DNA from: Candidatus Moraniibacteriota bacterium | GTDB taxonomy: Bacteria; Patescibacteriota; Minisyncoccia; Moranbacterales; GWC2-37-73 | Assembly: GCA_003507445.1 (NCBI GenBank) | Contig: DNVR01000019.1 | Coordinates: forward strand, 1,367-65,366 | Direction of reading: 5' to 3' | Length of the DNA stretch: 64,000 nt | In this document: positions 1 to 63,512 of the stretch, piece by piece | Layout of the letters: each line of letters begins with the position of its first letter | Position numbering within the stretch: position 1 is the first letter of the stretch | Notes under the pieces: generated by a model | The model's input: the letters and a program-made list of their open reading frames with translations, nothing else | What the model was told of the DNA's origin: nothing | Databases searched by the model: none | Program-made: the position numbers and the translations under genes

Positions 1-45
1 GATAACCTTGTCTACGACCGCGCTGGGAAAGTTGCTGGATACGCG

Positions 46-1623
46 ATGCCGTTTCTTAAGGGCTTTGATGTCCTTCTGAGTTACGGTGACCGAGCTTTTG
101 GGCAAGCGGTGCCCTATGATCAAAAAATGGGAATCTGCTTGGGGTTGCATGAGTCTTTACGACAAACGCACCCCCTCGGAGTTATTTTCGGAGACTTCAA
201 TGATCTCAACATTCTCGTAAGGGGATCCGAAGCATGGATCATTGATGTCGACAGTGCTCAGTTTGGATCGTATTTGTGCAGGGTGTTTACCGAGAAATTT
301 GTAGACCCACTGCTTTGCGATTCCACTGGCAAGCGTCCGATGCTCAATCGTCCATTCAACTCCGACTCAGACTGGTATGCCTTCGACGTCATGTTGATGG
401 CAACCTTGCTTTACGTTGGTCCCTACGGCGGAATTTTCAAGCCTGGGGACAAGAGCAAGCTTGTCCCTCATGACCAGCGACCACTCAAACGAATTACTGT
501 TTTTCATCCGGATGTAAAATATCCCAAACCTGCAGTGCATTGGAGGGTTCTGCCTGACGATCTATTGCAGCATTTTCACCAGCGATTTGAAAACGATGTT
601 AGAGGGCAAACCCCTCTTGCATTGCTGGAAAAAATGCGGTGGACAACGTGTTCCAACTGTGGAATTGAGCATGCCAGAGCAATGTGCCCGGAATGTTTCG
701 TTGCTCCACCAGCCGCCATCAAGGAGGTAACCGTCGTGCGTGGCATTGTCATTGCAAGCACAATATTCAAAACAAAAGGAGTCATCCTCCATGCTTCCTA
801 CCAGGAAGGTAACTTGCGGTGGCTCTACCATGAAAATGGAGAATATCGTCGCGAGGGTGGTGCAGTTGTTACGCAAGGAAAACTCGACCCGCAGGTGAGA
901 TATCGAATTAAGGACAAAAAAACCCTGATTGGCAAGGAAAACATCGTTGTTATCCTTAGCCCGGGAGAACAAATGGAACGTGTTGTTGTTGACATGTACG
1001 GCCAACTGCCTATCTTTGACAGCAACGACAAGTTTCACTACTGGTCACAAAACGGCCAGCTACGCCGCAACGATCCAATGGGTGAGGAATATATCGGAGA
1101 CGTGCTGCAAAACCAGACCTTGTTCTGGGTCGGGCCAACTTTTGGCTTTGGCTTTTACAGGGCGGGTGAAATTAGCATGGCATTCGTCTTCGACGCTCAA
1201 AGGAAACGCTCCCTTAATGACCAGGTAAATATTCAACCCATACGCGGACAACTAGTCGACGCCACATGCATTTTCAGTCCAAAGTATGCGTGGTTTTTTA
1301 CCACTAGTTCAGAGAGTGGCAAGCTGATGAATCGCTGCACATTGATTGAAGCAAGTGGCAAGGTTTTATCTACCGCTGAGACTGAAAAAGGCAGCGATCA
1401 CTGGTTAGGAAATATCAGAGGTTCTTGTGCTATTAACAAGTTCCTGCTGGTTCCAACTGATGAAGGTATCGTCAGAGTCGAAGAAGATAATTCGCAACTG
1501 ACTGAAGTAAAAAAATTCCCAGACACTGAGTCGTTTGTTGATTCAAGTTCATTCCTTTACCCTGGTGCTGATGGCTTGTACGTCATAAGGCGTCAGGAAA
1601 TAATCCGACTGAAATTAAGTTAG
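46..1623 (+). CDS. Protein-kinase-like-fold protein with a central CxxC...CxxC zinc ribbon. The reading frame is open to the window start, so the gene is probably 5'-truncated.
   Basis: The motifs FGDFNDLNILV / IIDVDSAQFG / DWYAFDVMLMATLL resemble kinase catalytic-loop, DFG and subdomain IX regions. The zinc ribbon reads CSNCGIEHARAMCPEC. There is no in-frame stop between nt 1 and 46. GC is about 55%. Confidence 0.4.
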   Translation: MPFLKGFDVLLSYGDRAFGQAVPYDQKMGICLGLHESLRQTHPLGVIFGDFNDLNILVRGSEAWIIDVDSAQFGSYLCRVFTEKFVDPLLCDSTGKRPMLNRPFNSDSDWYAFDVMLMATLLYVGPYGGIFKPGDKSKLVPHDQRPLKRITVFHPDVKYPKPAVHWRVLPDDLLQHFHQRFENDVRGQTPLALLEKMRWTTCSNCGIEHARAMCPECFVAPPAAIKEVTVVRGIVIASTIFKTKGVILHASYQEGNLRWLYHENGEYRREGGAVVTQGKLDPQVRYRIKDKKTLIGKENIVVILSPGEQMERVVVDMYGQLPIFDSNDKFHYWSQNGQLRRNDPMGEEYIGDVLQNQTLFWVGPTFGFGFYRAGEISMAFVFDAQRKRSLNDQVNIQPIRGQLVDATCIFSPKYAWFFTTSSESGKLMNRCTLIEASGKVLSTAETEKGSDHWLGNIRGSCAINKFLLVPTDEGIVRVEEDNSQLTEVKKFPDTESFVDSSSFLYPGADGLYVIRRQEIIRLKLS

Positions 1624-1731
1624 GAAAAGCAAACGACAAGGAGGTGGTATCTACAAATTAGTTTTGATGTTTTGTGGAGTATTTAATGTTTAGAAATTCA
1701 AACTCAAGCAGCACAAAAAAAGGAGAATACC

Positions 1732-2793
1732 ATGAGCCAGAGAAATCCCAGTAAGTATGAAACGATCATCCCTCCTCATTTCAATCCGGACAAAGTCGGC
1801 GAGGTTTGGAGGGTTGATTACAACGGCCTTGCCCCCGTCGCCCAGCAGTGGGCCGCGGCGCAGGACATCAAAGCCGCCGTCACCGATCGCATGCGGATCT
1901 GTCTGATGCCTATCGACGTCCAGAATACCTTCTGCATCCCCGGCTTCGAACTGTATGTCGGTGGGCAGAGCGGTACCGGAGCAATCGATGACAACAGGCG
2001 CCTGGCGGAATTCACTTACCGCTACCTCAAAATCCTGACGGCGATCACGCCCACACTCGACACCCACACCGCCATGCAGATCTTCCACCCCTTCTTCTGG
2101 ATCAATGAAAAGGGCGAACACCCGATTGGCGGAGCAACACTCATCTCCCTCGAGGACGTTCAAAAAGGCGTCTGGCGGGTAAATCCGGCAGTTGTCTTCA
2201 GCGTTACGGGCAACAAAGATATGTACCCGGCGCTCCAGGCACATGCACTTCACTACACGAAACGCCTGACCGAGGACGGCAAGTACGCTCTCATGATCTG
2301 GCCTTATCACGCGATGCTGGGAGGAATCGGGCATGCCCTGGTCTCCTCGTGCGAAGAAGCTTTCTTCTTCCACAACATTGCCCGCCGTAACCAGACTGGC
2401 TTCGAGATTAAAGGTGGCAACCCACTGACCGAAAACTACAGCGTGCTTCGTCCCGAAGTGCTCGACGGTCCGTCCGGCGCTCCCATCGCTTCGAAGAACT
2501 CCGTGTTCTTCAAGAAGCTCCTAGATTTCGACGCAATCATTATTGGCGGCCAGGCCAAGTCACATTGTGTGGCTTGGACAATCGACGACCTGTTGAATGA
2601 AATCAAGGCCAAGGATCCCAGACTGGCTCAGAAGGTGTATCTTCTCGAAGACTGCACCAGCCCGGTCGTGCTTCCTGGCATCATCGATTTCACCGACATG
2701 GCGAACACCGCCTTCAATCGTTTCCGGGATGAAGGGATGCACGTCGTCCGCTCCACCGATCCGATCGAGGAATGGCCGGGGATGAACCTCTAG
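1732..2793 (+). CDS. Isochorismatase-family cysteine hydrolase, atypically long at 353 aa.
   Basis: Has the Asp motif LMPIDVQNTFC and a catalytic-Cys context IIGGQAKSHCVAWTIDD typical of the isochorismatase/nicotinamidase fold. An RBS, AAGGAG, sits upstream of the ATG. Confidence 0.55.
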   Translation: MSQRNPSKYETIIPPHFNPDKVGEVWRVDYNGLAPVAQQWAAAQDIKAAVTDRMRICLMPIDVQNTFCIPGFELYVGGQSGTGAIDDNRRLAEFTYRYLKILTAITPTLDTHTAMQIFHPFFWINEKGEHPIGGATLISLEDVQKGVWRVNPAVVFSVTGNKDMYPALQAHALHYTKRLTEDGKYALMIWPYHAMLGGIGHALVSSCEEAFFFHNIARRNQTGFEIKGGNPLTENYSVLRPEVLDGPSGAPIASKNSVFFKKLLDFDAIIIGGQAKSHCVAWTIDDLLNEIKAKDPRLAQKVYLLEDCTSPVVLPGIIDFTDMANTAFNRFRDEGMHVVRSTDPIEEWPGMNL

Positions 2794-2835
2794 GTTAATC
2801 CAAACAAAAAACCACAACAGACAAGGAGAGAAGAC

Positions 2836-3711
2836 ATGAGCCAGACAGCACTTAACGCATTGTTCCAGAACGCAGCAGCAGACGGAGGACTTTCTCCGGC
2901 CGCCATGCAGGCACTCAATGTGAACGATATCGGAGCTCAAATCCAGGCAGGTCTCGGCGTTTCCGTCGACGACGTCCTGGCATCGGAAGTGGTCATCGTG
3001 ACCATGATGCCCGATGATTCCGGATCCATTCGTTTCGCCGGCAACACGCAGTTCGTGCGCGACGGCCACAACGCCGTCATTGATGCACTGAAAGATTCGA
3101 AACAGAAAAACGGCATCCTTATGCACACGCGTTATCTCAACGGTAACGTTCTGTTCCCCTACGTGAACATCGACCAGGCCGTGCGGATGGATTCCAGTAA
3201 CTACAACCCGAACCTCGGAACCCCGCTCTTCGACCAGACTCTCGTTTTGCTCGGCACCGTGCTGGCAAAAACGCAGGAGTTTGCGGACAACGGCATGCAT
3301 TGCCGGAGCGTTACCTGCCTGGTTACTGACGGCGACGACGAGCATTCGACTCGTGCCGATGCAAGGATGGTTCGCACCGTCGTCAGCGACATGCTGCAGA
3401 CGGAAAACCACATAATAGCCGGCCTCGGCATCGACGATGCCCCGGAAGAGTGCAGAAGCTGCGGTTGCAAAACGCTGCGCGAAACCGAGCTGACGGTCAA
3501 TACCTGTCCCAAGTGCGGAGCGGGTTTCCGTCGCACCAATTTCGAGAAAGTTTTTCTGGAGATGGGCCTGCTCAAAGAGTGGATCCTGACCCCGAAGAAC
3601 ACCCCGTCCGACATACGCAAAGCCTTCCAGATGTTCTCTCAGAGCGCAGTCCGCGCATCCCAGGGAGCGGCAAGCTTTTCGCAGACGGCCGTCGGCGGAT
3701 TCGGAAATTGA
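2836..3711 (+). CDS. VWA (von Willebrand factor A) domain protein with a MIDAS motif and a C-terminal zinc ribbon; possibly TerY-like.
   Basis: MIDAS motif DDSGS (VVIVTMMPDDSGSIRF). VWA core ...VTCLVTDGDDEHS. C-terminal CRSCGC...CPKCG. RBS AAGGAGAG upstream. Confidence 0.6.
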   Translation: MSQTALNALFQNAAADGGLSPAAMQALNVNDIGAQIQAGLGVSVDDVLASEVVIVTMMPDDSGSIRFAGNTQFVRDGHNAVIDALKDSKQKNGILMHTRYLNGNVLFPYVNIDQAVRMDSSNYNPNLGTPLFDQTLVLLGTVLAKTQEFADNGMHCRSVTCLVTDGDDEHSTRADARMVRTVVSDMLQTENHIIAGLGIDDAPEECRSCGCKTLRETELTVNTCPKCGAGFRRTNFEKVFLEMGLLKEWILTPKNTPSDIRKAFQMFSQSAVRASQGAASFSQTAVGGFGN

Positions 3712-3772
3712 TCCGAAAAAATGAAATGTATTTTATGAAGTGAAATGATATTGTGTCGCAACGCAAAATCCA

Positions 3773-8459: not shown

Positions 8460-8467
8460 GAAAAATT

Positions 8468-8614
8468 CACCCCAGTTAAATAATTTTAAAAAATAGTAAT
8501 TTTTTAAAATTAAGATTTGGGATTTAGTTGAATACATCAAAATTGAGAAAAAAATATAACAAAATAAGGTGTTGCTATTTTAAGAATAGACCCAAATCTT
8601 ATTTAACGGGGTAA
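8468..8614. repeat. Palindromic element, long copy A, of the CACCCCAGTTAAATAA...TTATTTAACGGGGTAAA family; it abuts the nth start codon.
   Basis: Near-identical arms to the copy at 27530-27664. Outer inverted repeat CCCCAGTTAAATAA / TTATTTAACGGGG; inner inverted repeat AAGATTTGGG / CCCAAATCTT; internal palindrome AATTTTAAAAAATAGTAATTTTTTAAAATT. Confidence 0.75.
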
Positions 8615-10460: not shown

Positions 10461-11069
10461 ATGGAAAAAGAAAAAGAATTGAACATATACGCTGAAAAAA
10501 CTGATGAACAACTCGTCGCGCTAACGCTCAAAGACGAGAATTTTTATGCAATTTTGATTGAGCGATATGAAGAAAAACTTACGAGGTATATTTTGAGAAT
10601 TTCCGGAGGATCGAAAGAAGATGTCGAAGACACTTTGCAAGACGTCTTTATTAGCGCATATAAAAATCTTAATGATTTTGATCCTGATTTGAAATTTTCT
10701 TCTTGGATTTATCGCATCGCTCATAATAAAGTCATTAGTCATTTCAGAAAAATAACAGCGCGTCCAAAAACAGTGACATATGAAGGAGATGGGCAACTGC
10801 TTAATATTTTGGCTAGCGATCTTGATATTGCCAGAGATTTGGAAAGGAAATATACAGGAGAAGAAGTCAGGAGCATTCTTGAGGAGTTGGATGAAAAATA
10901 TAGGGAAGTTTTGGTTCTTAAGTTTTTGGAGGAAAAGGATTACAAGGAAATTTCTGATATTTTGGAAAAACCAATGGGAACAGTGGCAACACTTATAAAC
11001 AGGGCTAAAAAACAATTCAAAGAAAAATCACTGAGACGGGAAGCACAAACTCTAAAACCTAGAACCTAA
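10461..11069 (+). CDS. RNA polymerase sigma factor, sigma-70/ECF-like (regions 2 and 4).
   Basis: Region 2 DVFISAYKNLNDFDPDLKFSSWIYRIAHNKVISHFRK; region 4 YKEISDILEKPMGTVATLINRAKKQF. The C-terminal TLKPRT is encoded by an (AACCTAR)n heptamer array. Confidence 0.8.
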   Translation: MEKEKELNIYAEKTDEQLVALTLKDENFYAILIERYEEKLTRYILRISGGSKEDVEDTLQDVFISAYKNLNDFDPDLKFSSWIYRIAHNKVISHFRKITARPKTVTYEGDGQLLNILASDLDIARDLERKYTGEEVRSILEELDEKYREVLVLKFLEEKDYKEISDILEKPMGTVATLINRAKKQFKEKSLRREAQTLKPRT

Positions 11070-11086
11070 TACCTAAAACCTAAAAA
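11052..11086. repeat. (AACCTAR)n heptamer array, overlapping the sigma gene stop.
   Basis: CTAAAACCTAGAACCTAATACCTAAAACCTAA. Confidence 0.8.
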
Positions 11087-18186: not shown

Positions 18187-18244
18187 CATAGGCTATAAAC
18201 GTACAAAAGGCGTACAAAAATACAAAAATACAAAAATACAAAAA

Positions 18245-18287
18245 CCCCAGTTAAATAGTGAGGGTTACCGTAATTTAACGGGGTAAA
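18245..18287. repeat. Short palindromic element of the same family (CCCCAGTTAAATAG...TAATTTAACGGGGTAAAC), upstream of pilB.
   Basis: Shares both arms with the long copies. Confidence 0.65.
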
Positions 18288-20059: not shown

Positions 20060-20185
20060 TTTAAGGCAATGTCAAATTAAAAATTAAAAATATCAAATCC
20101 AGGACGATGCCCGTATGATTTCTTGATATTTAACATTTGACATTCATTTGAAATTTGGAATTTAAAATTTGAAATTTTTTAGATT

Positions 20186-23423: not shown

Positions 23424-24953
23424 ATGATTAATTTTAGATTTAAAAAAAACCAATTAAATAATTTGCCTACGGCAGAATTTAACGGGGTAAATACAAAAAG
23501 GGGAAGTGCTTTGGCTATGGCCTTGGTAATGATTGTTATTGTTGCAATCACTTTAACTTCACTTCTTGGATATATTTCATCTCAAATAAGATATAGCAAG
23601 GACAGGGTTGAGCGCGAGCGAGCCTTTCAGGTCGCTGAAGCTGGAGCTTATTATTATAGGTGGTATTTGGCGCATCAAGTTTCAGGAAAAACTGCGGCTC
23701 AAATTGAGGATTTTTGGCAAAATGGAAATCCTATTGGAGTTACTGATCCATATTCTGGAACATTTAATGATTCAGAAAATATGCCTGTTGGAGAATATGA
23801 ATTAAATGTTGATCCTCCAGAAGATGGTTCAACAATTGTGACTGTCACATCAACAGGTTGGACAAATAATAAGCCAAATATTAAACGCACTGTGCAGGTG
23901 AGATTTCGCAGACCTTCTTGGAGTGAGTATACTTTCTTATCTAACAGTTTTTTAAATTTCGGAAATCAATCGACGGTGTATGGAAAAATTCATTCTAACG
24001 ACGGAATTCGTTTTGATGGACTAGCTTATAACGTTGTTAGTTCTGCCAAAGCAAGATTTAACGACCCATCTATTGGTGGGAGTTCTCTGGATTTCGGAGT
24101 TCATACAACAGTAACTCCTGCAGATGATCTTGCTCCCGCATATCCTTGGCCGTCAGGAACCGTTCCTGTTCGAAGTGACATTTTTATGGGAGGTAGGGAG
24201 TTTCCTGTTCCCGAAGTTAGTTTTTCTGGTGTTGCTACTGATCTTGATAATATGAAAGCTCAAGCGCAGGCAGGCAGCGGTCAGTATTTTTCTGCTATAG
24301 CAACAAGTAATGGTAAGGCAGGGGGGAGAAGAGTTATTTTAAAAGTTGACGGGACTTATGATATTTGCGCAATAAGCAAAGCCAATGAAACAAATCATAG
24401 TATTTCAAAATATTGGAAAAATGATATGAGTGGAACTTGCGACACTTGCAGTGGAGCTTGCGCAACAAATTACCCAATCGTTAATAATGGGTTAATTTTT
24501 GTGGAAGATAATATTTGGGTTGAGGGTTCCATAAACAATAAAAGATTAACAATTGCTGCCGCTAATTTGTCTGGAGGATCAAATCAAGCAGATATTTATA
24601 TTGGAATAGGCAATGATAATTTGCGACTTGCTGCTTATGATTGCGCTAATATGCTCGGGCTGGTGGCACAAAGGGATATACGAGTTCTTAGTTATTGCCC
24701 AGAGGATTTCATTGTGGATGCTGCTTTGCTTGCTCAAACAGGTCTTGTGGGTATTGTTAATGGCACATCGGGAGTAAAAAACTCACTGACGTTTAATGGT
24801 GCGATATCATCATATTTGCAAACATTCTTTTTTAATGGAGTTAGCGGCTTTGATGACAGAACTTATAACTTCAACAATAAACTTTTAGATTGTCCACCGC
24901 CGTATTTTCCAACTGGCACGGAATACGCAATAGATCTTTGGGATGAGTTATAA
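23424..24953 (+). CDS. PilX-like minor pilin; true start uncertain.
   Basis: RGSALAMALVMIVIVAITL resembles the PilX_N domain. The first ~90 nt overlap a diverged copy of the TTTAACGGGGTAAA element, so an alternative TTG start near 23511 is possible. Confidence 0.5.
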   Translation: MINFRFKKNQLNNLPTAEFNGVNTKRGSALAMALVMIVIVAITLTSLLGYISSQIRYSKDRVERERAFQVAEAGAYYYRWYLAHQVSGKTAAQIEDFWQNGNPIGVTDPYSGTFNDSENMPVGEYELNVDPPEDGSTIVTVTSTGWTNNKPNIKRTVQVRFRRPSWSEYTFLSNSFLNFGNQSTVYGKIHSNDGIRFDGLAYNVVSSAKARFNDPSIGGSSLDFGVHTTVTPADDLAPAYPWPSGTVPVRSDIFMGGREFPVPEVSFSGVATDLDNMKAQAQAGSGQYFSAIATSNGKAGGRRVILKVDGTYDICAISKANETNHSISKYWKNDMSGTCDTCSGACATNYPIVNNGLIFVEDNIWVEGSINNKRLTIAAANLSGGSNQADIYIGIGNDNLRLAAYDCANMLGLVAQRDIRVLSYCPEDFIVDAALLAQTGLVGIVNGTSGVKNSLTFNGAISSYLQTFFFNGVSGFDDRTYNFNNKLLDCPPPYFPTGTEYAIDLWDEL

Positions 24954-25133
24954 AAACACAAAATAATTGTAGAAGAAAACAGAAAAACGCAGAACTAAAA
25001 TTATGAATTATTGATAAAATAGTGTAGAATTAAAAAATACAAAATAAATAAACAAATATAAAAATAGTAATAAGAATTTTGTAGCGGGCGTATTTTATGT
25101 TGTATGCTACATGATTCATGCTATATGAATTAA

Positions 25134-26225: not shown

Positions 26226-26772
26226 TTTATTGCCAAAACAAAGAAAAACAGAATTAAAACGAAAAAAACTATTTCGTAGAATTTTGCGTGAGGAATTTTT
26301 GTTTTTGCTCCCGATAATTTTGTTTATTATAATTTTGTTTAATATTTTTTATTTGCTTTCTATTGAGCGCAATGCTTCTTTGGCTGCAAAATCAGCAGCT
26401 GAGTCGCAAGATAAATATCAAGAACTTAGCTTGTATGAAGAAAAATTTAAACAAGTTAATGAGAATGCTTCAAAATTAGTGAAAATTCAAGAAGGTCATT
26501 TTTATTGGGCGGAAATTTTTAACAAACTGAGTGCTGCCACGCCAGAAGAAATTGCAGTTACAGATTTTTCAACAAAAGATCGCAATGTATATCTTGTTGG
26601 AAAAGCCAAAAGCCGCGATGTGCTTTTGGAATTTAAGGATGAACTCGAAAAGAACGAATGCTACGAAAATATAAATGTTCCACTATCTAATCTTGTTGTG
26701 AAGAATGATATTGTTTTTCAAATGGATTTCTTAATAAAAATGGATTGTCTAAAGAAAACCCTAGTTAAATAG
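26209..26772 (+). CDS. pilN: PilN-like pilus assembly protein.
   Basis: LLPKQRK...transmembrane...coiled-coil layout; overlaps the pilM stop. Confidence 0.6.
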   Translation: MKIYLDLLPKQRKTELKRKKLFRRILREEFLFLLPIILFIIILFNIFYLLSIERNASLAAKSAAESQDKYQELSLYEEKFKQVNENASKLVKIQEGHFYWAEIFNKLSAATPEEIAVTDFSTKDRNVYLVGKAKSRDVLLEFKDELEKNECYENINVPLSNLVVKNDIVFQMDFLIKMDCLKKTLVK

Positions 26773-26830
26773 TGCGGGGTACCGCCCTATTGAATAAAAA
26801 AGTTCAACAGGGTAAACAATTTAACGGGGC
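26759..26830. repeat. Short palindromic element (CCCTAGTTAAATAGTGCGGGGTACCG...TTTAACGGGGCGAG) spanning the pilN stop and the pilO start.
   Basis: Arms match the family; it supplies the pilN C-terminal codons. Confidence 0.6.
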
Positions 26831-26838
26831 GAGAAATA

Positions 26839-27516: not shown

Positions 27517-27529
27517 TAATAAGAGAATT

Positions 27530-27664
27530 CACCCTGTTAAATAATTTTAAAAAATAGTAATTTTTTAAAATTAAGATTTGGAATAATAAGGTGAAAAAAT
27601 AAGAATTAATTTAAATAAGCTGGTGCTCTTTATTGAAGAGTCCAAATCTTATTTAACAGGGTAA
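27530..27664. repeat. Palindromic element, long copy B; it abuts the start codon of ORF 27665.
   Basis: CACCCTGTTAAATAATTTTAAAAAATAGTAATTTTTTAAAATTAAGATTTGG...CCAAATCTTATTTAACAGGGTAAA. Confidence 0.75.
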
Positions 27665-27985
27665 ATGCAATTTGATTTTAAAAAATTAACAACGAACAAT
27701 GGGCAGCTTTTTTCTACGGTTGTAATTTTTTGGCAAAAAATTTATAAAACGGTATTCTTTGTTTTTTTGACAATAGTGATTTTATTGAGTGTTTATGTAT
27801 GGCAAAGGAGCTTATCAGGAGGACAATGGAGCGCGGAAAAAAAACAGGAATTTTTGGATGCACAAAATAAAGGTGTGGTTTTCAAGGAGAGCGTTTTTAA
27901 CAAGGCACTTTCAGACGTCGAGATGCGAAAACAAGAAAACGTTAGCGAAAGTAAAGGGATAAAGGATATTTTTAAAGATTACTAG
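27665..27985 (+). CDS. Small membrane protein, last gene of the pilus cluster.
   Basis: One transmembrane helix, VVIFWQKIYKTVFFVFLTIVILLSV. Confidence 0.4.
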   Translation: MQFDFKKLTTNNGQLFSTVVIFWQKIYKTVFFVFLTIVILLSVYVWQRSLSGGQWSAEKKQEFLDAQNKGVVFKESVFNKALSDVEMRKQENVSESKGIKDIFKDY

Positions 27986-28045: not shown

Positions 28046-28053
28046 AATATTTG

Positions 28054-28128
28054 TGCGCCTTGAGAGATTCGAACTCCCGACCTATTGTTCCGAAGACAAT
28101 CGCTCTATCCAGCTGAGCTAAAGGCGCA
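28054..28128 (-). tRNA. tRNA-Arg(TCG).
   Basis: Cloverleaf by hand: acceptor GCGCCTT/AAGGCGC, anticodon loop CTTCGGA. Confidence 0.7.
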
Positions 28129-28160
28129 AAATGTCTCGAATTTTTTGTGAAATATGTGCT

Positions 28161-28234
28161 GGGCGAGTACTGGGAATCGAACCCAGATTCTCGGTACCAC
28201 AAACCGATGTCTTAGCCGCTAGACGATACCCGCC
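28161..28234 (-). tRNA. tRNA-His(GTG).
   Basis: Extra 5' G pairing with discriminator C; anticodon loop TTGTGGT. Confidence 0.75.
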
Positions 28235-28302
28235 ATATTTAAATAAAAAAACTTCTTTTTGTTTAGAAATTAGAAATTAAAAATTAAAAATTTCTCAACA
28301 TG

Positions 28303-28374
28303 TACCCTCAGCAGGAATCGAACCTACATAACAAGCTTAGAAGGCTTGTGTTCTATCCATTGAACTATGAGGGC
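28303..28374 (-). tRNA. tRNA-Arg(TCT).
   Basis: Anticodon stem CAAGC/GCTTG, loop CTTCTAA, T-loop TTCGATT. Confidence 0.7.
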
Positions 28375-28438
28375 ATATTAATTCCCTGCAAGGGAACTGG
28401 TGGGTTATGCAGGATTTTCACCCCGTCACTAACCTTTG

Positions 28439-28511
28439 TGCGTCCAGTAGGATTCGAACCTACGACCGTCGGCTTAAGAGGCCGCTGCTCTACCAACTGA
28501 GCTATAGACGC
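28439..28511 (-). tRNA. tRNA-Lys(CTT).
   Basis: GCGTCTATAGCTCAGTTGGTAGAGC...CTCTTAA...GGTTCGAATCC...TGGACGCA. Confidence 0.75.
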
Positions 28512-28515
28512 ATAT

Positions 28516-28782
28516 TTATTTTTCTAGTTCTTTTATCTTGTTTCTTATAAATTCTCTACCACGGAAGCTTTTCAGTTGTTTTTCTCTGTCCATTGCTTCT
28601 TTCCTTGTTTCAAATTTTTCATTATAAACCAGTTTCCATTCGCCCTTATTTTTGCTTGTATACGAGGTATTTTTATTTTTCAGTATGCCGTTATGTCTCA
28701 ATAACCTTGTTTTTATGTCGTTTGTTTGGCCTATGTAAATTTTTTCATTCAAGCTATTTTTTATAGCGTATGCAAAGTACAT
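28516..28782 (-). CDS. GIY-YIG (URI) nuclease domain protein, UPF0213/YhbQ-like, 89 aa.
   Basis: YFAYAIKN...KIYIGQTNDIKTRLLRHN...WKLVYNEKFETRKEAMDREKQLK. The longer ORF-track N-terminus (to 28863) would translate a tRNA-like fragment, so it is probably not coding. Confidence 0.65.
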   Translation of the reverse strand: MYFAYAIKNSLNEKIYIGQTNDIKTRLLRHNGILKNKNTSYTSKNKGEWKLVYNEKFETRKEAMDREKQLKSFRGREFIRNKIKELEK

Positions 28783-28794
28783 ATTTTTATAGTT

Positions 28795-28850
28795 GACCGT
28801 CGGCTTAAGAGTTCGCCAGCTGGCGAATCTACCAACTGAGCTAATAACCC
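28795..28850 (-). pseudogene. Chimeric tRNA-Lys(CUU)-like 5' fragment.
   Basis: GGGTTATTAGCTCAGTTGGTAGA + palindrome TTCGCCAGCTGGCGAA + CTCTTAAGCCGACGGTC. Identical to tRNA-Lys except that the anticodon-stem 5' strand is replaced by the palindrome. No T-arm or acceptor 3' strand. Confidence 0.5.
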
Positions 28851-28920
28851 AATTTTTTAACAACTAGCCAAGTATATCAGCTTTCTTACACTTAGTCAAT
28901 CCACATATTTAATATCTTGG

Positions 28921-30273: not shown

Positions 30274-30390
30274 AGGTTTTAGGTTCTAGGTATTAGTCTC
30301 TAGAATTTTTTATTAATTAAATAAAAAAGAAGACAACCTGTCTTCTTTTTTATATAAACCTAGCACCTAGAACCTAATACCTGGAACCTG
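30274..30390. repeat. Two inverted (AACCTAR)n heptamer arrays flanking the hsp20 terminator.
   Basis: AGGTTTTAGGTTCTAGGTATTAG ... CCTAGCACCTAGAACCTAATACCTGGAACCTG. Confidence 0.75.
30323..30352. terminator. Bidirectional terminator hairpin, serving hsp20 on the minus strand.
   Basis: AAGAAGACA-acc-TGTCTTCTT flanked by A and T runs. Confidence 0.6.
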
Positions 30391-38601: not shown

Positions 38602-38607
38602 TATGTT

Positions 38608-38776
38608 CCATTCTTCACTGGCAGATGCAAAATACTCGTTTCAAGCATAAACTTCTGCAGTTTCAATTCTATTTCTAAACAAAGCCCACTCTTTTAACTC
38701 TTGAATTAAAGGGTTCCAAGAATTTCTAACTTGGGCTACACTCATAAAAAAGAGGTTATTTGAGGCCTCTTTTTTG
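38608..38776. repeat. ~170-bp repeat, copy 1; its 3' ~45 bp duplicate the tRNA-Glu 3' end plus terminator.
   Basis: CCATTCTTCACTGGCAGATGC...CTTGGGCTACACTCATAAAAAAGAGG...CCTCTTTTTTG. Matches 39627-39797 (about 75%) and TTGGCGCTACACTCTTCAAAAAGAGG... at 36957-37003. Confidence 0.7.
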
Positions 38777-39599: not shown

Positions 39600-39626
39600 C
39601 TCAACCTTAAGTATTTTGCATAAATT

Positions 39627-39797
39627 CCATTCCTCACTGGCAGATATAGAATACTCATTTCAAGAATAAACATCGGCAGTTTCTAATTGTTTTCTGAATA
39701 TAGCCCATTCATTAAGCTCTTTAATAATAGGGTTCCAGTTCAACCTAACTTGGGCTACAAACAAAGAAATCTCCGCTTTAATGAGGGGATTTTTTGT
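39627..39797. repeat. ~170-bp repeat, copy 2.
   Basis: CCATTCCTCACTGGCAGATAT...CTTGGGCTACAAACAAAG...GAGGGGATTTTTTG. Confidence 0.7.
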
Positions 39798-39926: not shown

Positions 39927-40457
39927 CTAGGCTTTCTTTGAAAATTTAACAGGGATGAGTTCCCCTGCACCGAGACGAAAATTTTTGTTGCCAATTATTT
40001 TCATCTCGACTCTTGGGTCAACTAGGCGTTGCAAACGCGCACAAGCGACGATAATATTTGCAAAAAAACTTGAAAACCCAAGTTGTGTTCCAACTGAGAA
40101 AATATAATCATTAAATTCTCGTTGAAACATAATCTTTTGAAAAACATTGAGATGATATTCTCGAGAAATAGTAAACCGAGACAACTCAACACAATTCAGT
40201 GGCAGGTTGCTGTGTTGTGGGAAAAGAAAATCCTCAACAGGCAACCTTGCTCTTCTGCGATCGATAAGACGACAGCCTCCAATAACTTGCTTGTCATACA
40301 TAATAATGTAGTGGCAGCAGTTGTTGGCGTCATATTTGTCTTTCTCTAATCGCTCCTCATTTTCTGGCTCTGCCTGCATCTCTTCAACATAGCGCTCATA
40401 ACGTATGCGAAAATATGCATTAATCATCGCCGGATCGTTTGTTAGAATAAATTGCAT
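39927..40457 (-). CDS. GNAT-fold N-acyltransferase (autoinducer-synthase/N-acyl amino acid synthase-like).
   Basis: YIIMYDKQVIGGCRLIDRR...CVELSRFTISREY pattern; GC about 45%. Confidence 0.4.
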   Translation of the reverse strand: MQFILTNDPAMINAYFRIRYERYVEEMQAEPENEERLEKDKYDANNCCHYIIMYDKQVIGGCRLIDRRRARLPVEDFLFPQHSNLPLNCVELSRFTISREYHLNVFQKIMFQREFNDYIFSVGTQLGFSSFFANIIVACARLQRLVDPRVEMKIIGNKNFRLGAGELIPVKFSKKA

Positions 40458-44270: not shown

Positions 44271-45479
44271 ATGAACATCGCTATCTTCACTAATAATTAC
44301 CTCCCTAATCCTTTTGGCGTTTCGATGTCGATTGAAAGTTTTCGCAGGGAATTTGAAAAACTCGGCCACACGGTGTATATTTTTGCCCCTGATTTTAAGG
44401 ATTATGTTGATGAAAATAAGAATGTTTTCAGATATCCTGCCTTGGATTTGAAATTTAAAAATATTCGTTTTCCAATTGCAATTCCATATTCCTACCGTAT
44501 CGATAGGATTTTGGAAAGTTTAGAAATTGATGTGATTCATTCTCAACATCCAAATTTGTTGGGATGGCAAGCAAGAAGATGGGCAAAGAAAAAAAATGTG
44601 CCGCTTATTTTCACGTGGCACACATTGTATGATCAATACGCACATTTTGCACCTTTTATTCCCAGAAAATTGGCTGCTTGGTGGACGATTAAAAACGCCG
44701 TGAAATACGCAAACAGGTGCGATCAGATTATTGTGCCAACCAAATCAGTCAAAAAAATAATAACTGATTGGGGAGTGCGAAATGAAAATATTCAAGCAGT
44801 TGCGACAGGTGTTGAAGAAAGTTTTTTTCAAAATACTGATAGGGTTGGAACGAGAAAAAAGTTTGGTATTGAAGATGATGAAGTGGCGCTGCTGCTTCTT
44901 TCCAGATTAACAACAGAAAAAAATGTTGAATTTTTGGTGCGAGCAGTTATTAAAATTTTGAAAAAAAATGAAAAAATTTACCCTGTTAAATCCGCGATAG
45001 ATCGCGGTGCGGAGCAATTTAACAGGGTGAAGTTTATTTTAGCTGGGGAAGGACAAGAATTGCCAAAACTTAAAAAAATGATTGTTAATGCTGGATTGAT
45101 AAATAAAGTTGTTTTTTCAGGGATTGTGCAAAGAGAAATTACAAAAAATATTTTCGCAGCTGCTGATATTTTTGTGTATGCTTCAAAATCAGAAACACAG
45201 GGGATGATTTTAACTGAGGCAATGTGCTTGGGTCTTCCTGTTGTAGCTGTGGCAGCAACAGGTGCGATAGACATTGTTGGCAATCAAATCACTGGATTAT
45301 TGGTAAAGGAAAATGAAGATGAATTTGCAAGTGCTGTTGAAAGATTGATAAATGATGTGGAACTCAGAAAGCGATTTTCAGAAAATGCCGAAAAAATTGC
45401 CAAAGAAAATTACACAGCTCCTATTTGTGCTCAAAAAATGCTAGAGATTTATCAAAAAAATATTGGAACAAAAAAATGA
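44271..45479 (+). CDS. Glycosyltransferase family 1 (GT4).
   Basis: N-terminal MNIAIFTNNYLPNPFGVS and C-terminal ETQGMILTEAMCLGLPVVA. Confidence 0.8.
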   Translation: MNIAIFTNNYLPNPFGVSMSIESFRREFEKLGHTVYIFAPDFKDYVDENKNVFRYPALDLKFKNIRFPIAIPYSYRIDRILESLEIDVIHSQHPNLLGWQARRWAKKKNVPLIFTWHTLYDQYAHFAPFIPRKLAAWWTIKNAVKYANRCDQIIVPTKSVKKIITDWGVRNENIQAVATGVEESFFQNTDRVGTRKKFGIEDDEVALLLLSRLTTEKNVEFLVRAVIKILKKNEKIYPVKSAIDRGAEQFNRVKFILAGEGQELPKLKKMIVNAGLINKVVFSGIVQREITKNIFAAADIFVYASKSETQGMILTEAMCLGLPVVAVAATGAIDIVGNQITGLLVKENEDEFASAVERLINDVELRKRFSENAEKIAKENYTAPICAQKMLEIYQKNIGTKK

Positions 45480-46018: not shown

Positions 46019-46106
46019 ACTCGCTGTGTAGTAATAGTTGCGTTGCTAAAAATTAATTAATAAAAATATCTGCAGTGCGTATTTTTTGATACATGCTTCA
46101 TGATAT

Positions 46107-46712
46107 ATGCTATATGATATGGTTTACGAAGCAAAAAAATTTGATCATCTGCTGGGTTTGGATGGTTTTTCAGATGAACTACTTAAAAATCATTTCACCT
46201 TGTATGAAGGTTATGTGGCAAATACAAACAAGGCGGTTGATACAATTGTAAATCTTTTGGATCAAGATAAGACGGCCACGCCGGAATATGCAGAGGTTAT
46301 GCGCAGATTCGGTTGGGAGTTTAATGGGATGCGACTCCATGAATTGTATTTTGAAAATATGATGAAAGGTGGTTCGACATTAGAAAAGGAAAGTGAACTT
46401 GGCAAAAAAATTGTTCAGCAGTTTGGTTCGCTTGAAAGATGGGAAAAGCATTTTCGTGCAACTGGTGCAATGCGGGGAATCGGTTGGGTCGTGCTATATC
46501 AAGATGATGTTACCGGTACGATGTATAACGTGTGGATTAATGAACATAACGAAGGGCATATGACTGGCGCAACACCACTTTTAGTTATGGATGTTTTTGA
46601 ACATTCCTATATGATTCAATATGGCCTAAAAAAAGTTGATTACATCGAAGCGTTTTTTAAAAACATCTGCTGGCACGTTGTCAGCGCAAGGTTTGCACAG
46701 GCGAATGCGTAG
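46107..46712 (+). CDS. Fe/Mn superoxide-dismutase-fold protein with one metal ligand substituted.
   Basis: C-terminal LVMDVFEHSYMIQY matches SOD DVWEHAYY; GWVVL...VWINEHN also matches. The N-terminal KHH ligand region is replaced (TLYEGYVANTN). The start may instead be the ATG at 46119. Confidence 0.6.
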   Translation: MLYDMVYEAKKFDHLLGLDGFSDELLKNHFTLYEGYVANTNKAVDTIVNLLDQDKTATPEYAEVMRRFGWEFNGMRLHELYFENMMKGGSTLEKESELGKKIVQQFGSLERWEKHFRATGAMRGIGWVVLYQDDVTGTMYNVWINEHNEGHMTGATPLLVMDVFEHSYMIQYGLKKVDYIEAFFKNICWHVVSARFAQANA

Positions 46713-49825: not shown

Positions 49826-49858
49826 AAAGAATCTTCCTTTTTTTGGGAAGATTTTTTA
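49826..49858 (+). terminator. Terminator after the FKBP gene.
   Basis: GAATCTTCC-tttttttg-GGAAGATT followed by TTTTT. Confidence 0.6.
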
Positions 49859-49962
49859 CTTTGCCTTTTTCCTTTTGAGGCACGCTTCGCAATCGAAGAA
49901 CTATGATCGCTCGCTAAGAGTTTGCTGTCGCTCTCTGTTGCCTCAAAAGGAAAAAGGTAAAG
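49859..49962. repeat. ~104-bp element bounded by 24-bp inverted repeats (CTTTGCCTTTTTCCTTTTGAGGCA / TGCCTCAAAAGGAAAAAGGTAAAG).
   Basis: 23/24 complementary termini enclosing a GC-richer core with a CTTCG-caat-CGAAG hairpin. Confidence 0.6.
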
Positions 49963-50030
49963 TAAAAATTTCAAAAACTTTGTTTCGCGTGTAGCTCAAT
50001 AAAGTAATATATATCTACGTATTTAGATTA

Positions 50031-61231: not shown

Positions 61232-61353
61232 TAAATTCCAAATTAAAAATTAAAAATTTCAAATAAATTCCAAATGATTAAATTTTAAAAATTGGGCATT
61301 GGAAATTTGGTATTCATTTGATATTTGTTATTTGGACTTTGAAATTAAATACT

Positions 61354-63342: not shown

Positions 63343-63483
63343 GTCGTGTTTCTCCTCTCAGGTTTATTTTGATGTAAAAAAGCAAGTGTTTTTATATTTG
63401 TGAGTTTAATCTAGCGGTAAACCTGTATTTAGTCAATGCTTATAGCGCTTGAAGGGATTTTTAGAAACTAAGAAGCATAAATC

Positions 63484-63512
63484 TAAAACCTAGAACCTAG
63501 AACCTAAAACCT
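63484..63512. repeat. (AACCTAR)n heptamer array upstream of purN.
   Basis: TAAAACCTAGAACCTAGAACCTAAAACCTG. Confidence 0.8.

Follow-up and report, generated by a model that had tools for sequence, protein, structure and literature searches.

A 64,000-nt stretch of DNA from Candidatus Moraniibacteriota bacterium, a member of the Patescibacteriota (GenBank assembly GCA_003507445.1, contig DNVR01000019.1, positions 1,367 to 65,366; hereafter the window), carries nth, several genes of the pil series (pilB, pilM, pilN, pilO and a PilX-like gene) and a gene for a glycosyltransferase of the GT4 family. Its PilO is 100% identical to an NCBI protein assigned to Candidatus Moranbacteria. Between and within these genes lies a dispersed palindromic element that is the subject of this analysis. 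An initial annotation made from the sequence alone had reported five copies, all of which are present; a sixth copy (E6) and a lone right arm had escaped it, and the short relative that it placed at 26759-26830 does exist but consists of two elements, one nested within the other. The copies are collected in Table 1; the lone right arm may be a remnant or a chance occurrence. When the evidence presented below is considered, these repeats are probably copies of a non-autonomous mobile hairpin element that operates at the DNA level, a dispersed palindrome comparable to MITEs (miniature inverted-repeat transposable elements) or to the Rickettsia palindromic elements (RPEs).

Table 1. Copies of the palindromic element in the window, with their genomic setting
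Feature	Position	Strand	Setting
E1, long copy	8466-8614	+	ends directly at the nth ATG (8615)
E2, long copy	27528-27664	+	between the pilO stop and the ATG of ORF 27665-27985; ends directly at that ATG
E3, short single-hairpin copy	18245-18287	+	23 nt before the pilB ATG (18311); bulged A in the 5' arm
E4, outer short copy	26758-26833	+	contains the pilN stop TAG 26770-26772; ends 5 nt before the pilO ATG (26839)
32-nt element nested inside E4	26785-26816	+	variant arms CCCTATTGAAT / GTTCAACAGGGTAAA
E5, degenerate left arm AACCAATTAAAT	23448-23491	+	in frame, 5' end of the PilX-like ORF 23424-24953
E6, two-hairpin copy	44977-45031	+	in frame in the GT4-family glycosyltransferase ORF 44271-45479
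Lone right-arm motif ATTTAACAGGG	39944-39954	+	partner arm absent

The conserved part of the element is a pair of inverted arms of the form (R)TTY-ACCC-N-GTTAAAT ... ATTTAAC-N-GGGT-RAA(Y), given as TTYACCCNGTTAAAT and ATTTAACNGGGTRAA; the conserved arms extend further than was initially reported. A near-invariant inverted-repeat stem of 15-16 nt forms the outside of each copy. Within it lie small GC-rich hairpins, either one or two, or, in long copies, one large hairpin, and the interior is free in sequence while its pairing is kept. A single strand of a copy folds into a T-shaped three-way junction with zero unpaired bases at the junction, and the only conserved sequence of the family is the fully paired stem. 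The motif TTTAACRGGG occurs nine times in the window, compared with 0.24 occurrences expected from dinucleotide shuffles, and under strict settings three paired arms were found as against 0-1 in 20 shuffles. A search with relaxed arms followed by a covariance model gave the six copies, each of which folds into an outer stem with one or two hairpins enclosed by it, and the model detected no further copies in the window; it scores the element on both strands, its top score (48 bits) belonging to E6. For E1, whose arms are TTCACCCC(A)GTTAAAT and ATTTAACGGGGTAA and whose inner hairpin A spans 8482-8511, the three-way junction has a folding energy of -35.9 kcal/mol as RNA (z -5.2) and a z of -6.95 as DNA. 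The stems described initially for the long copies are real, the long inner hairpin of E1 (AAGATTTGGG/CCCAAATCTT) being changed on both sides in E2 (AAGATTTGGA/TCCAAATCTT), and what had been called a perfect 30-bp palindrome is a 13-bp stem with a 4-nt loop (AATTTTAAAAAAT-AGTA-ATTTTTTAAAATT). Public contigs of the window's genome often terminate inside E1, as a repeat would lead one to expect. Just before E3, TACAAAAA is repeated four times in a run at 18216-18249.

The element is not confined to this genome. A scan of one genome per species for exact ACCCNGTTAAAT, 10-40 nt and ATTTAACNGGG returned at least 118 loci, and the family counts of 126-128 copies used from here on rest on the matches listed from that scan. 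About 8 chance matches would be expected in the scanned collection by rough arithmetic assuming uniform composition; the matches are not due to chance, since conservation extends to positions that the search pattern did not include (T at -4 in 98 of 126 copies, T at -3 in 99 of 126, A at +3 in 106 of 127), and past ±5 of the pattern the sequence is random. According to their record titles, the listed loci include 44 from Patescibacteria, 29 of Desulfobacterota type, nine from WOR-3/Stahlbacteria, six each from Omnitrophota and Bacteroidota and five from Proteobacteria, while the other 19 come from Cloacimonadota (three), Bdellovibrionales (two), other phyla (three) and unclassified records (11); these proportions are indicative only, as the phylum labels are those of metagenome-assembled genome bins, in which misbinned contigs are possible. 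Among the listed matches there are several copies per genome, some of them in tandem. Carriage by phages was considered and rejected, as a set of 2.9 million viral contigs yielded only six matches. In metagenome contigs, the 46-nt core of E1/E2 is matched exactly once, at the orthologous nth site of a relative. At the WOR-3/Stahlbacteria loci L024, L027, L032, L043, L085, L092 and L110, the element is embedded in a larger composite repeat with outer inverted repeats AACCACAGAG / CCTCTGTGGTT and a second GTTAGAT-type copy alongside; the direct repeats at WOR-3 copies belong to this composite and were rejected as target duplications.

Pairing is preserved throughout the family. Every one of the 126 distinct listed copies folds into one or two inner hairpins, and when 26 two-hairpin copies are placed in one orientation, two-sided changes are seen at all 13 base pairs of the inner hairpins. 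Paired cells in this set amount to 90.7%, compared with 78.6% in shuffled sequences (0 of 500 shuffles as high) and 34-48% in slid controls, it being important to bear in mind that the 26 sequences were selected for folding into two hairpins. The arms vary in concert as well (GTTAGAA/TTCTAAC, GTTAGAT/ATCTAAC, GTTAGAG/CTCTAAC and GTTAAGT/ACTTAAC), and these variants show a wider superfamily fitting GTTRRRY/RYYYAAC. Inner loops are 3 nt long and closed by C-G in 41 of 62 cases, a design known from very stable DNA mini-hairpins (d(GCGAAGC) is an example) rather than from typical functional RNA loops. Finally, 62 of the 126 distinct copies have a length that is a multiple of three, against an expected one third, and this excess may stem from a few abundant subfamilies or from a survival advantage of frame-neutral lengths.

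With respect to genomic location, 111 of the 128 listed copies are intergenic, mostly in housekeeping operons, and 17 lie inside open reading frames (ORFs). The intergenic copies that were checked have complete, unrelated housekeeping genes as neighbours, for instance rplA/rplJ, prfB-ftsE-ftsX (with a copy in both gaps), tig, rplI and recA; relative to the direction of transcription, the copies are oriented 16 to 7, which is not decisive. Proximity to start codons, initially regarded as a trait of the family, does not hold across it: the distance from a copy to the next ORF varies widely, and the copies inside ORFs depart from such a trait too. In some copies the TAA of the left arm doubles as the stop codon of the upstream gene, and E4 ends pilN with a TAG formed where its left arm meets the interior (GTTAAA-TAG).

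At least 10 of the 17 copies within ORFs sit in ORFs with confident Pfam domains and are read through in one frame. The proteins of ORFs with copies include the GatA amidase, ComEC, DNA polymerase I (PolA), KsgA, triosephosphate isomerase (TIM), leucyl-tRNA synthetase (LeuRS), Wzy, an O-antigen ligase, a methyltransferase and glycosyltransferases; in TIM, the copy inserts 19 residues that the solved enzyme of Thermotoga (1b9b) does not have. When 15 copies lying in ORFs were examined in detail, 13 turned out to share the H-P-V-K frame, all 13 with lengths that are multiples of three and with the common peptide (V/I)H-P-V-K-S ... F-N-(G/R)-V, the remaining two (E5 of the window and the copy at L113) using the second open frame of the left arm. 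This uniformity arises because stop codons within the arms, namely a TAA in one frame of each arm and a GGG-TRA stop in another, leave only one phase open; moreover, copies that break the frame or carry a stop would escape detection inside intact ORFs. E5 encodes ...QLNNLPTAEFNGV... and E6 encodes I-YPVKSAIDRGAEQFNR-V. The AlphaFold model of the E6 host has an overall predicted local distance difference test (pLDDT) score of 89.5 and a sole stretch below 50, a loop formed by residues 237-249; the inserted residues are predicted to lie in this only low-confidence loop of an otherwise confident model. Intron-like removal was also considered and rejected, given that the copies within ORFs are all in frame and free of stops and that the genes flanking intergenic copies are complete and unrelated.

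This distribution bears directly on the cis-regulatory RNA or structured leader proposed by the initial annotation. In its full form, this reading makes the hairpin a leader or intercistronic mRNA element that would govern how the gene behind it (nth, pilB, pilO and others) is translated or how stable its message is. Although in the window four copies out of six have their end 0-23 nt ahead of a start codon, and several copies elsewhere adjoin rplJ/rplL, the same element occurs in frame in unrelated enzymes and beside unrelated genes, and close relatives possess the same genes without it, there being no fixed association with orthologous genes. A lack of further copies and of compensatory changes would, by the initial annotation's own criterion, have refuted it; both were found in abundance, and compensatory stem changes would fit a functional RNA; they are, however, equally expected of a hairpin DNA element. 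At E1 and E2 the region just 5' of the AUG is buried in a fold of -36 kcal/mol, and in the E3-site copies of the relatives L129 and L130 the left arm, GTTGGAT, keeps its pairing only by way of G-U on the sense strand; yet of 45 copies with a clear direction of transcription, 31 have a sense fold that is less stable than the antisense one (Wilcoxon p=0.017; mean +0.9 kcal/mol), and G-U pairs are fewer on the sense strand (33) than on the antisense strand (47). Conserved unpaired nucleotides are absent, the model scores either strand as noted above, and a search of the window and 18 loci against Rfam 15 at gathering scores, together with one at E<=10 on a stretch holding two copies, returned only tRNAs and noise. 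Seen in this light, an RNA regulator is a very unlikely explanation.

Evidence of movement comes from orthologous sites in relatives with 81-93% protein identity, in which empty sites are found for E6, E4, E2 and E5. The nearest orthologues of the E6 host, P0001 (86% identical) and P0002 (81%), lack exactly 17 amino acids or 51 nt, the site reading GAAAAAAYMAAATTT when empty and GAAAAAAT[TTACCC...GGGT]GAAGTTT when filled, and a homologous copy is present in an orthologue of 75% identity. A neighbour-joining tree of 61 glycosyltransferase orthologues shows the insertion scattered over about six separate places, and one clade has it in decayed form. At the E4 site, L129 is empty, with pilN and pilO overlapping at TAATG, and L130 has a simple 44-nt element, whereas the window has the 44-nt element plus the second, 32-nt element nested within it; the nested element is also present in L137 and missing from the otherwise identical element of L130. 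L137 shows a break of synteny at E4 that could be an assembly chimera, and it was not used as evidence.

At the E2 site, where L129 is empty with a gap of 12 nt, the window has an insertion of 136 nt, and L130 and L137 have an unrelated palindromic element instead. The latter, of about 138 nt, follows pilO at L130:10690-10830 and L137:1515-1560 and has the ends TTACGCATTTCGAAACATTTCTTTTTTGGCC... and ...GCCAAAAAAGAAATTGTTGAGAAAATGCGTAA. Since two unrelated elements occupy this site, the gap after pilO is a repeated landing site for hairpin elements. E5 has a counterpart in L129, while in L130 a stretch of 33 nt (11 codons) flanked by a TAAAT/TAAAY direct repeat is missing and what is left resembles a solo left arm, which suggests deletion by slippage between short direct repeats. 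In the case of E3, the site is filled in all three relatives, with interiors that differ and with the window's interior resembling E4, a pattern suggestive of exchange between copies.

Upstream of nth, the element is filled in three species (those of the window, L140 and L141) and empty in L142 and L143, which are as closely related to the window's species as the filled ones. The orthologous nth copies carry paired changes in the P3 stem (AAGATTTGGG/CCCAAATCTT to AAGATTCGGG/CCCGAATCTT), in inner hairpin A and in one pair of the outer arms (G-C to A-T); the central part of E2 is, as judged by eye, closer to the nth copy of L141 than that of E1 is. A small conserved hairpin motif, GTGCTTAGATTAAAGCATAA, lies about 20-45 nt upstream of nth in L141, L142 and L143 and is absent before nth in the window, where the upstream gene differs. 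In general, an empty site in a relative can represent either loss or absence of gain.

The same sites speak to the suggestion that the element is mobile but retained where it is for a donated promoter, ribosome-binding site or start codon. The copies E1, E2 and that of L141 abut the ATG as ...GGGTAA-ATG, the consensus right flank TRAAY is one G short of an ATG, and a GGGG stands 4-5 nt before the ATG; this putative ribosome-binding site is, however, base-paired in the stem, and relatives without the element have the same ATG for nth and for ORF 27665. As to the donated promoter mentioned in the initial annotation, neither a sigma-70-like site nor a terminator-like one occurs above chance inside E1 or E2, and the variable distances to start codons across the family add to these objections. 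Retention for expression signals is thus the least probable of the explanations considered, although E1 and E2, where ...ACGGGGTAA abuts the ATG, may contribute ribosome-binding or start context.

The preferred reading, that of a mobile hairpin in DNA, agrees with the MITE that the initial annotation had offered as an alternative, in that the element is multi-copy, dispersed and polymorphic between close relatives. New copies are added between operon genes, at gene ends, within other copies and within genes, those in genes being translated as a loop peptide. Movement would proceed through single-stranded DNA in its folded form, the invariant stem being what a nuclease or recombinase acting in trans, and not encoded beside the copies, would recognise; such an intermediate and such an enzyme are suggested by filled and empty sites, by an interior that preserves pairing, by arms common to phyla and by the fact that no target duplication was seen. 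For the adjoining genes, the copies would be passengers that may change expression as a side effect and not by design. Side effects of this kind are likely at E1 and E2, where the start codon stands at the foot of a hairpin of about -36 kcal/mol, and at E4, where the stop-start overlap of pilN and pilO is broken.

It is nevertheless important to stress that several observations weigh against this reading, in addition to the possible misbinning and the selection of the 26 sequences mentioned above. No transposase or recombinase was found among the ORFs of the window, where the only small nuclease-like ORF is a stand-alone GIY-YIG protein of 115 amino acids (28516-28863), and a mobilising enzyme did not come to light: in 1.03 Mb around copies, a weak tblastn search gave no match to IS608 TnpA, to an E. 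coli REP-associated tyrosine transposase (RAYT), to XerD or to IntI1. Neither an autonomous version with the same arms nor an arm pair enclosing a gene was found in about 1 Mb of loci. One distant arm pair (L014 5477/7075) was rejected as an autonomous parent, as it holds no transposase-like ORF, and the other unpaired arms are degenerate or belong to long copies. A k-mer comparison of 127 copies with boundaries 0-8 revealed no general signal of target duplication, and comparisons of single sites are compatible with a duplication of 0-5 nt but ambiguous, the flanks being A/T runs. Finally, glycosyltransferase orthologues have the insertion repeatedly at one exact position, and E1 is maintained at nth with compensatory changes; both could point to retention by selection rather than to neutrality.

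The nature of the arms raises the question of whether the copies are instead host-recognised DNA sites, that is, recombination or binding sites resembling integron attC or Xer/dif that a conserved tyrosine recombinase would use in folded single-stranded form and that would spread or persist because a host enzyme acts on them. GTTRRRY and RYYYAAC are the consensus of the attC core and inverse-core sites, and the inner boxes of the element, with all their variants, fit them; likewise, TGTTAAAT equals the outer 8 nt of the E. coli XerD arm of dif, TTATGTTAAAT. These fits offer a lead. Sequence kept only in the boxes and structure kept in a variable interior, a single bulged base in one arm of some copies, boxes shared across phyla and insertion into or beside other copies would all be accommodated. 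On the other hand, the boxes stand in the opposite order to those of attC (GTTRRRY...RYYYAAC, not RYYYAAC...GTTRRRY), full dif-like sites are no more frequent in the window than chance would give and do not occur in the loci, and the copies are single and lie in housekeeping operons and inside genes, outside cassette arrays; the tblastn search described above is also relevant here, in that it revealed no IntI- or XerD-like gene near them. On balance, we regard such sites as an unlikely explanation. A somewhat less doubtful, though still speculative, extension of the mobile element envisages a pan-bacterial "micro-cassette", a T-shaped single-stranded DNA hairpin with attC/dif-like GTTRRRY boxes that would be moved and precisely excised by a conserved stem-reading enzyme, either a host Xer-type recombinase or an unrecognised nuclease. 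This would explain the identical arms in distant phyla, the absence of target duplication and the piling of copies into one another.

When the family is compared with known systems, it behaves most like the RPEs, which also reside in frame in genes, and like the REP/REPIN and MITE families, which are hairpin repeats of operons. RPEs are small, dispersed, non-autonomous palindromes without a known mobilising enzyme; they occupy intergenic DNA as well as coding sequences, in which they keep the frame and add peptide segments to the protein. However, they measure about 100-150 bp and are confined to Rickettsia and close relatives, whereas the present elements are mostly 44-75 nt long, with near-invariant 15-nt arms across phyla and an interior of one or two mini-hairpins of free sequence. 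The family is an analogue and not a member of the RPEs, set apart by its hosts (Patescibacteria and other phyla) and by its description. [quoted passage not shown] Their defining feature is a GTAG or CGTC tetranucleotide at one end of the palindrome (PMC3733652). The present arm consensus contains neither, and REPs are species-specific and extragenic, in contrast to a family that shares its arms across phyla and enters genes; no RAYT-like gene near the copies came out of the search above.

Classical MITEs, such as the Correia/NEMIS elements of Neisseria and enterobacterial repetitive intergenic consensus (ERIC) sequences, resemble the family in their terminal inverted repeats, small size and many copies, as well as in being co-transcribed with adjoining genes and in having size variants produced by internal insertions or deletions. 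Terminal inverted repeats (arms of 15-16 nt in 127 non-identical listed copies) and dispersed, polymorphic copies are features of the present family too; a related autonomous insertion sequence with the same ends has no match in the roughly 1 Mb of loci searched. Correia elements duplicate a TA target and contain an integration host factor site and promoter pieces, whilst here no consistent duplication and no promoter were found. With integron attC, the family has in common that conservation is limited to 7-nt boxes (GTTRRRY/RYYYAAC), that the interior is structured and variable with an occasional bulged base, that the site acts, or in this family would act, as a folded single strand and that the boxes are common to phyla. 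The differences, apart from the inverted order of the boxes, are that the copies are solitary, with no cassette arrays or integrase nearby, and that the outer RTTYACC/GGTRAAY only approximate the R boxes of attC, at a spacing of 2 nt. A T shape made of a stem and two small hairpins and read by an HUH nuclease is also that of the adeno-associated virus terminal repeat. Short mobile hairpins that invade both intergenic and coding DNA occur in organelles as well, as exemplified by the GC clusters of yeast mitochondria, fungal double-hairpin elements and the repetitive hairpin-forming elements of sponge mitochondria (PMC2800124). In both cases the analogy is one of form only, without sequence relation and with other hosts or a viral replication origin.

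Searches of the literature for the arm sequence strings, and for palindromic elements or MITEs in Patescibacteria or the candidate phyla radiation, found no description, not all journals being covered, and the family is apparently undescribed. It is unusual in that its arms hardly vary from phylum to phylum, that it takes on a T-shaped fold and that it has colonised essential genes of reduced genomes.

Some further features of the window deserve mention. Positions 1-3750 have a GC content of 50%, compared with about 35% in the rest, and contain ORFs without Pfam match (46-1623, 1732-2793 and 2836-3711); this segment looks like foreign DNA. A motif of about 50 nt (GCGTATTTT.TG.T..ATGCT.CATGAT..ATGCTATATGA) stands directly before the start codons of pilM (25060-25128) and superoxide dismutase (46049-46117) and may be a common promoter or leader. 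Periodic intergenic tracts follow genes at 11048-11081, 30356-30389 and 63479-63512, and also occur at 20068-20176, 28268-28298 and 61234-61346, with heptamers (AACCTAG/AACCTAA) and AAATT-type repeats. Downstream of the FKBP gene, at 49853-49968, another large hairpin is formed by an inverted repeat whose 30-nt arms are 97% complementary and stand 56 nt apart; its sequence bears no relation to that of the family. Four tRNA genes (Arg, His, Arg and Lys; 28053-28511) adjoin the GIY-YIG nuclease ORF (28516-28863; minus strand), and a 113-nt direct repeat (38606-38718 and 39625-39737; 80% identical, 1 kb apart) lies near a GNAT acetyltransferase gene.

Patescibacteria genomes are regarded as streamlined and poor in mobile DNA. 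A hairpin that colonises operons and writes loops of 11-20 residues into TIM, GatA, DNA polymerase I, LeuRS and glycosyltransferases would supply these bacteria with both protein and regulatory variation. In practical terms, the element is a cause of contig breaks and of mis-called gene starts and ends, and its filled and empty sites are markers for population studies at strain level in groundwater metagenomes. Small repeats in bacteria are normally lineage-specific, and it is unusual for near-invariant 15-nt arms to be common to Patescibacteria, Desulfobacterota, WOR-3, Omnitrophota and Bacteroidota; this points to a recognition partner that is itself conserved.

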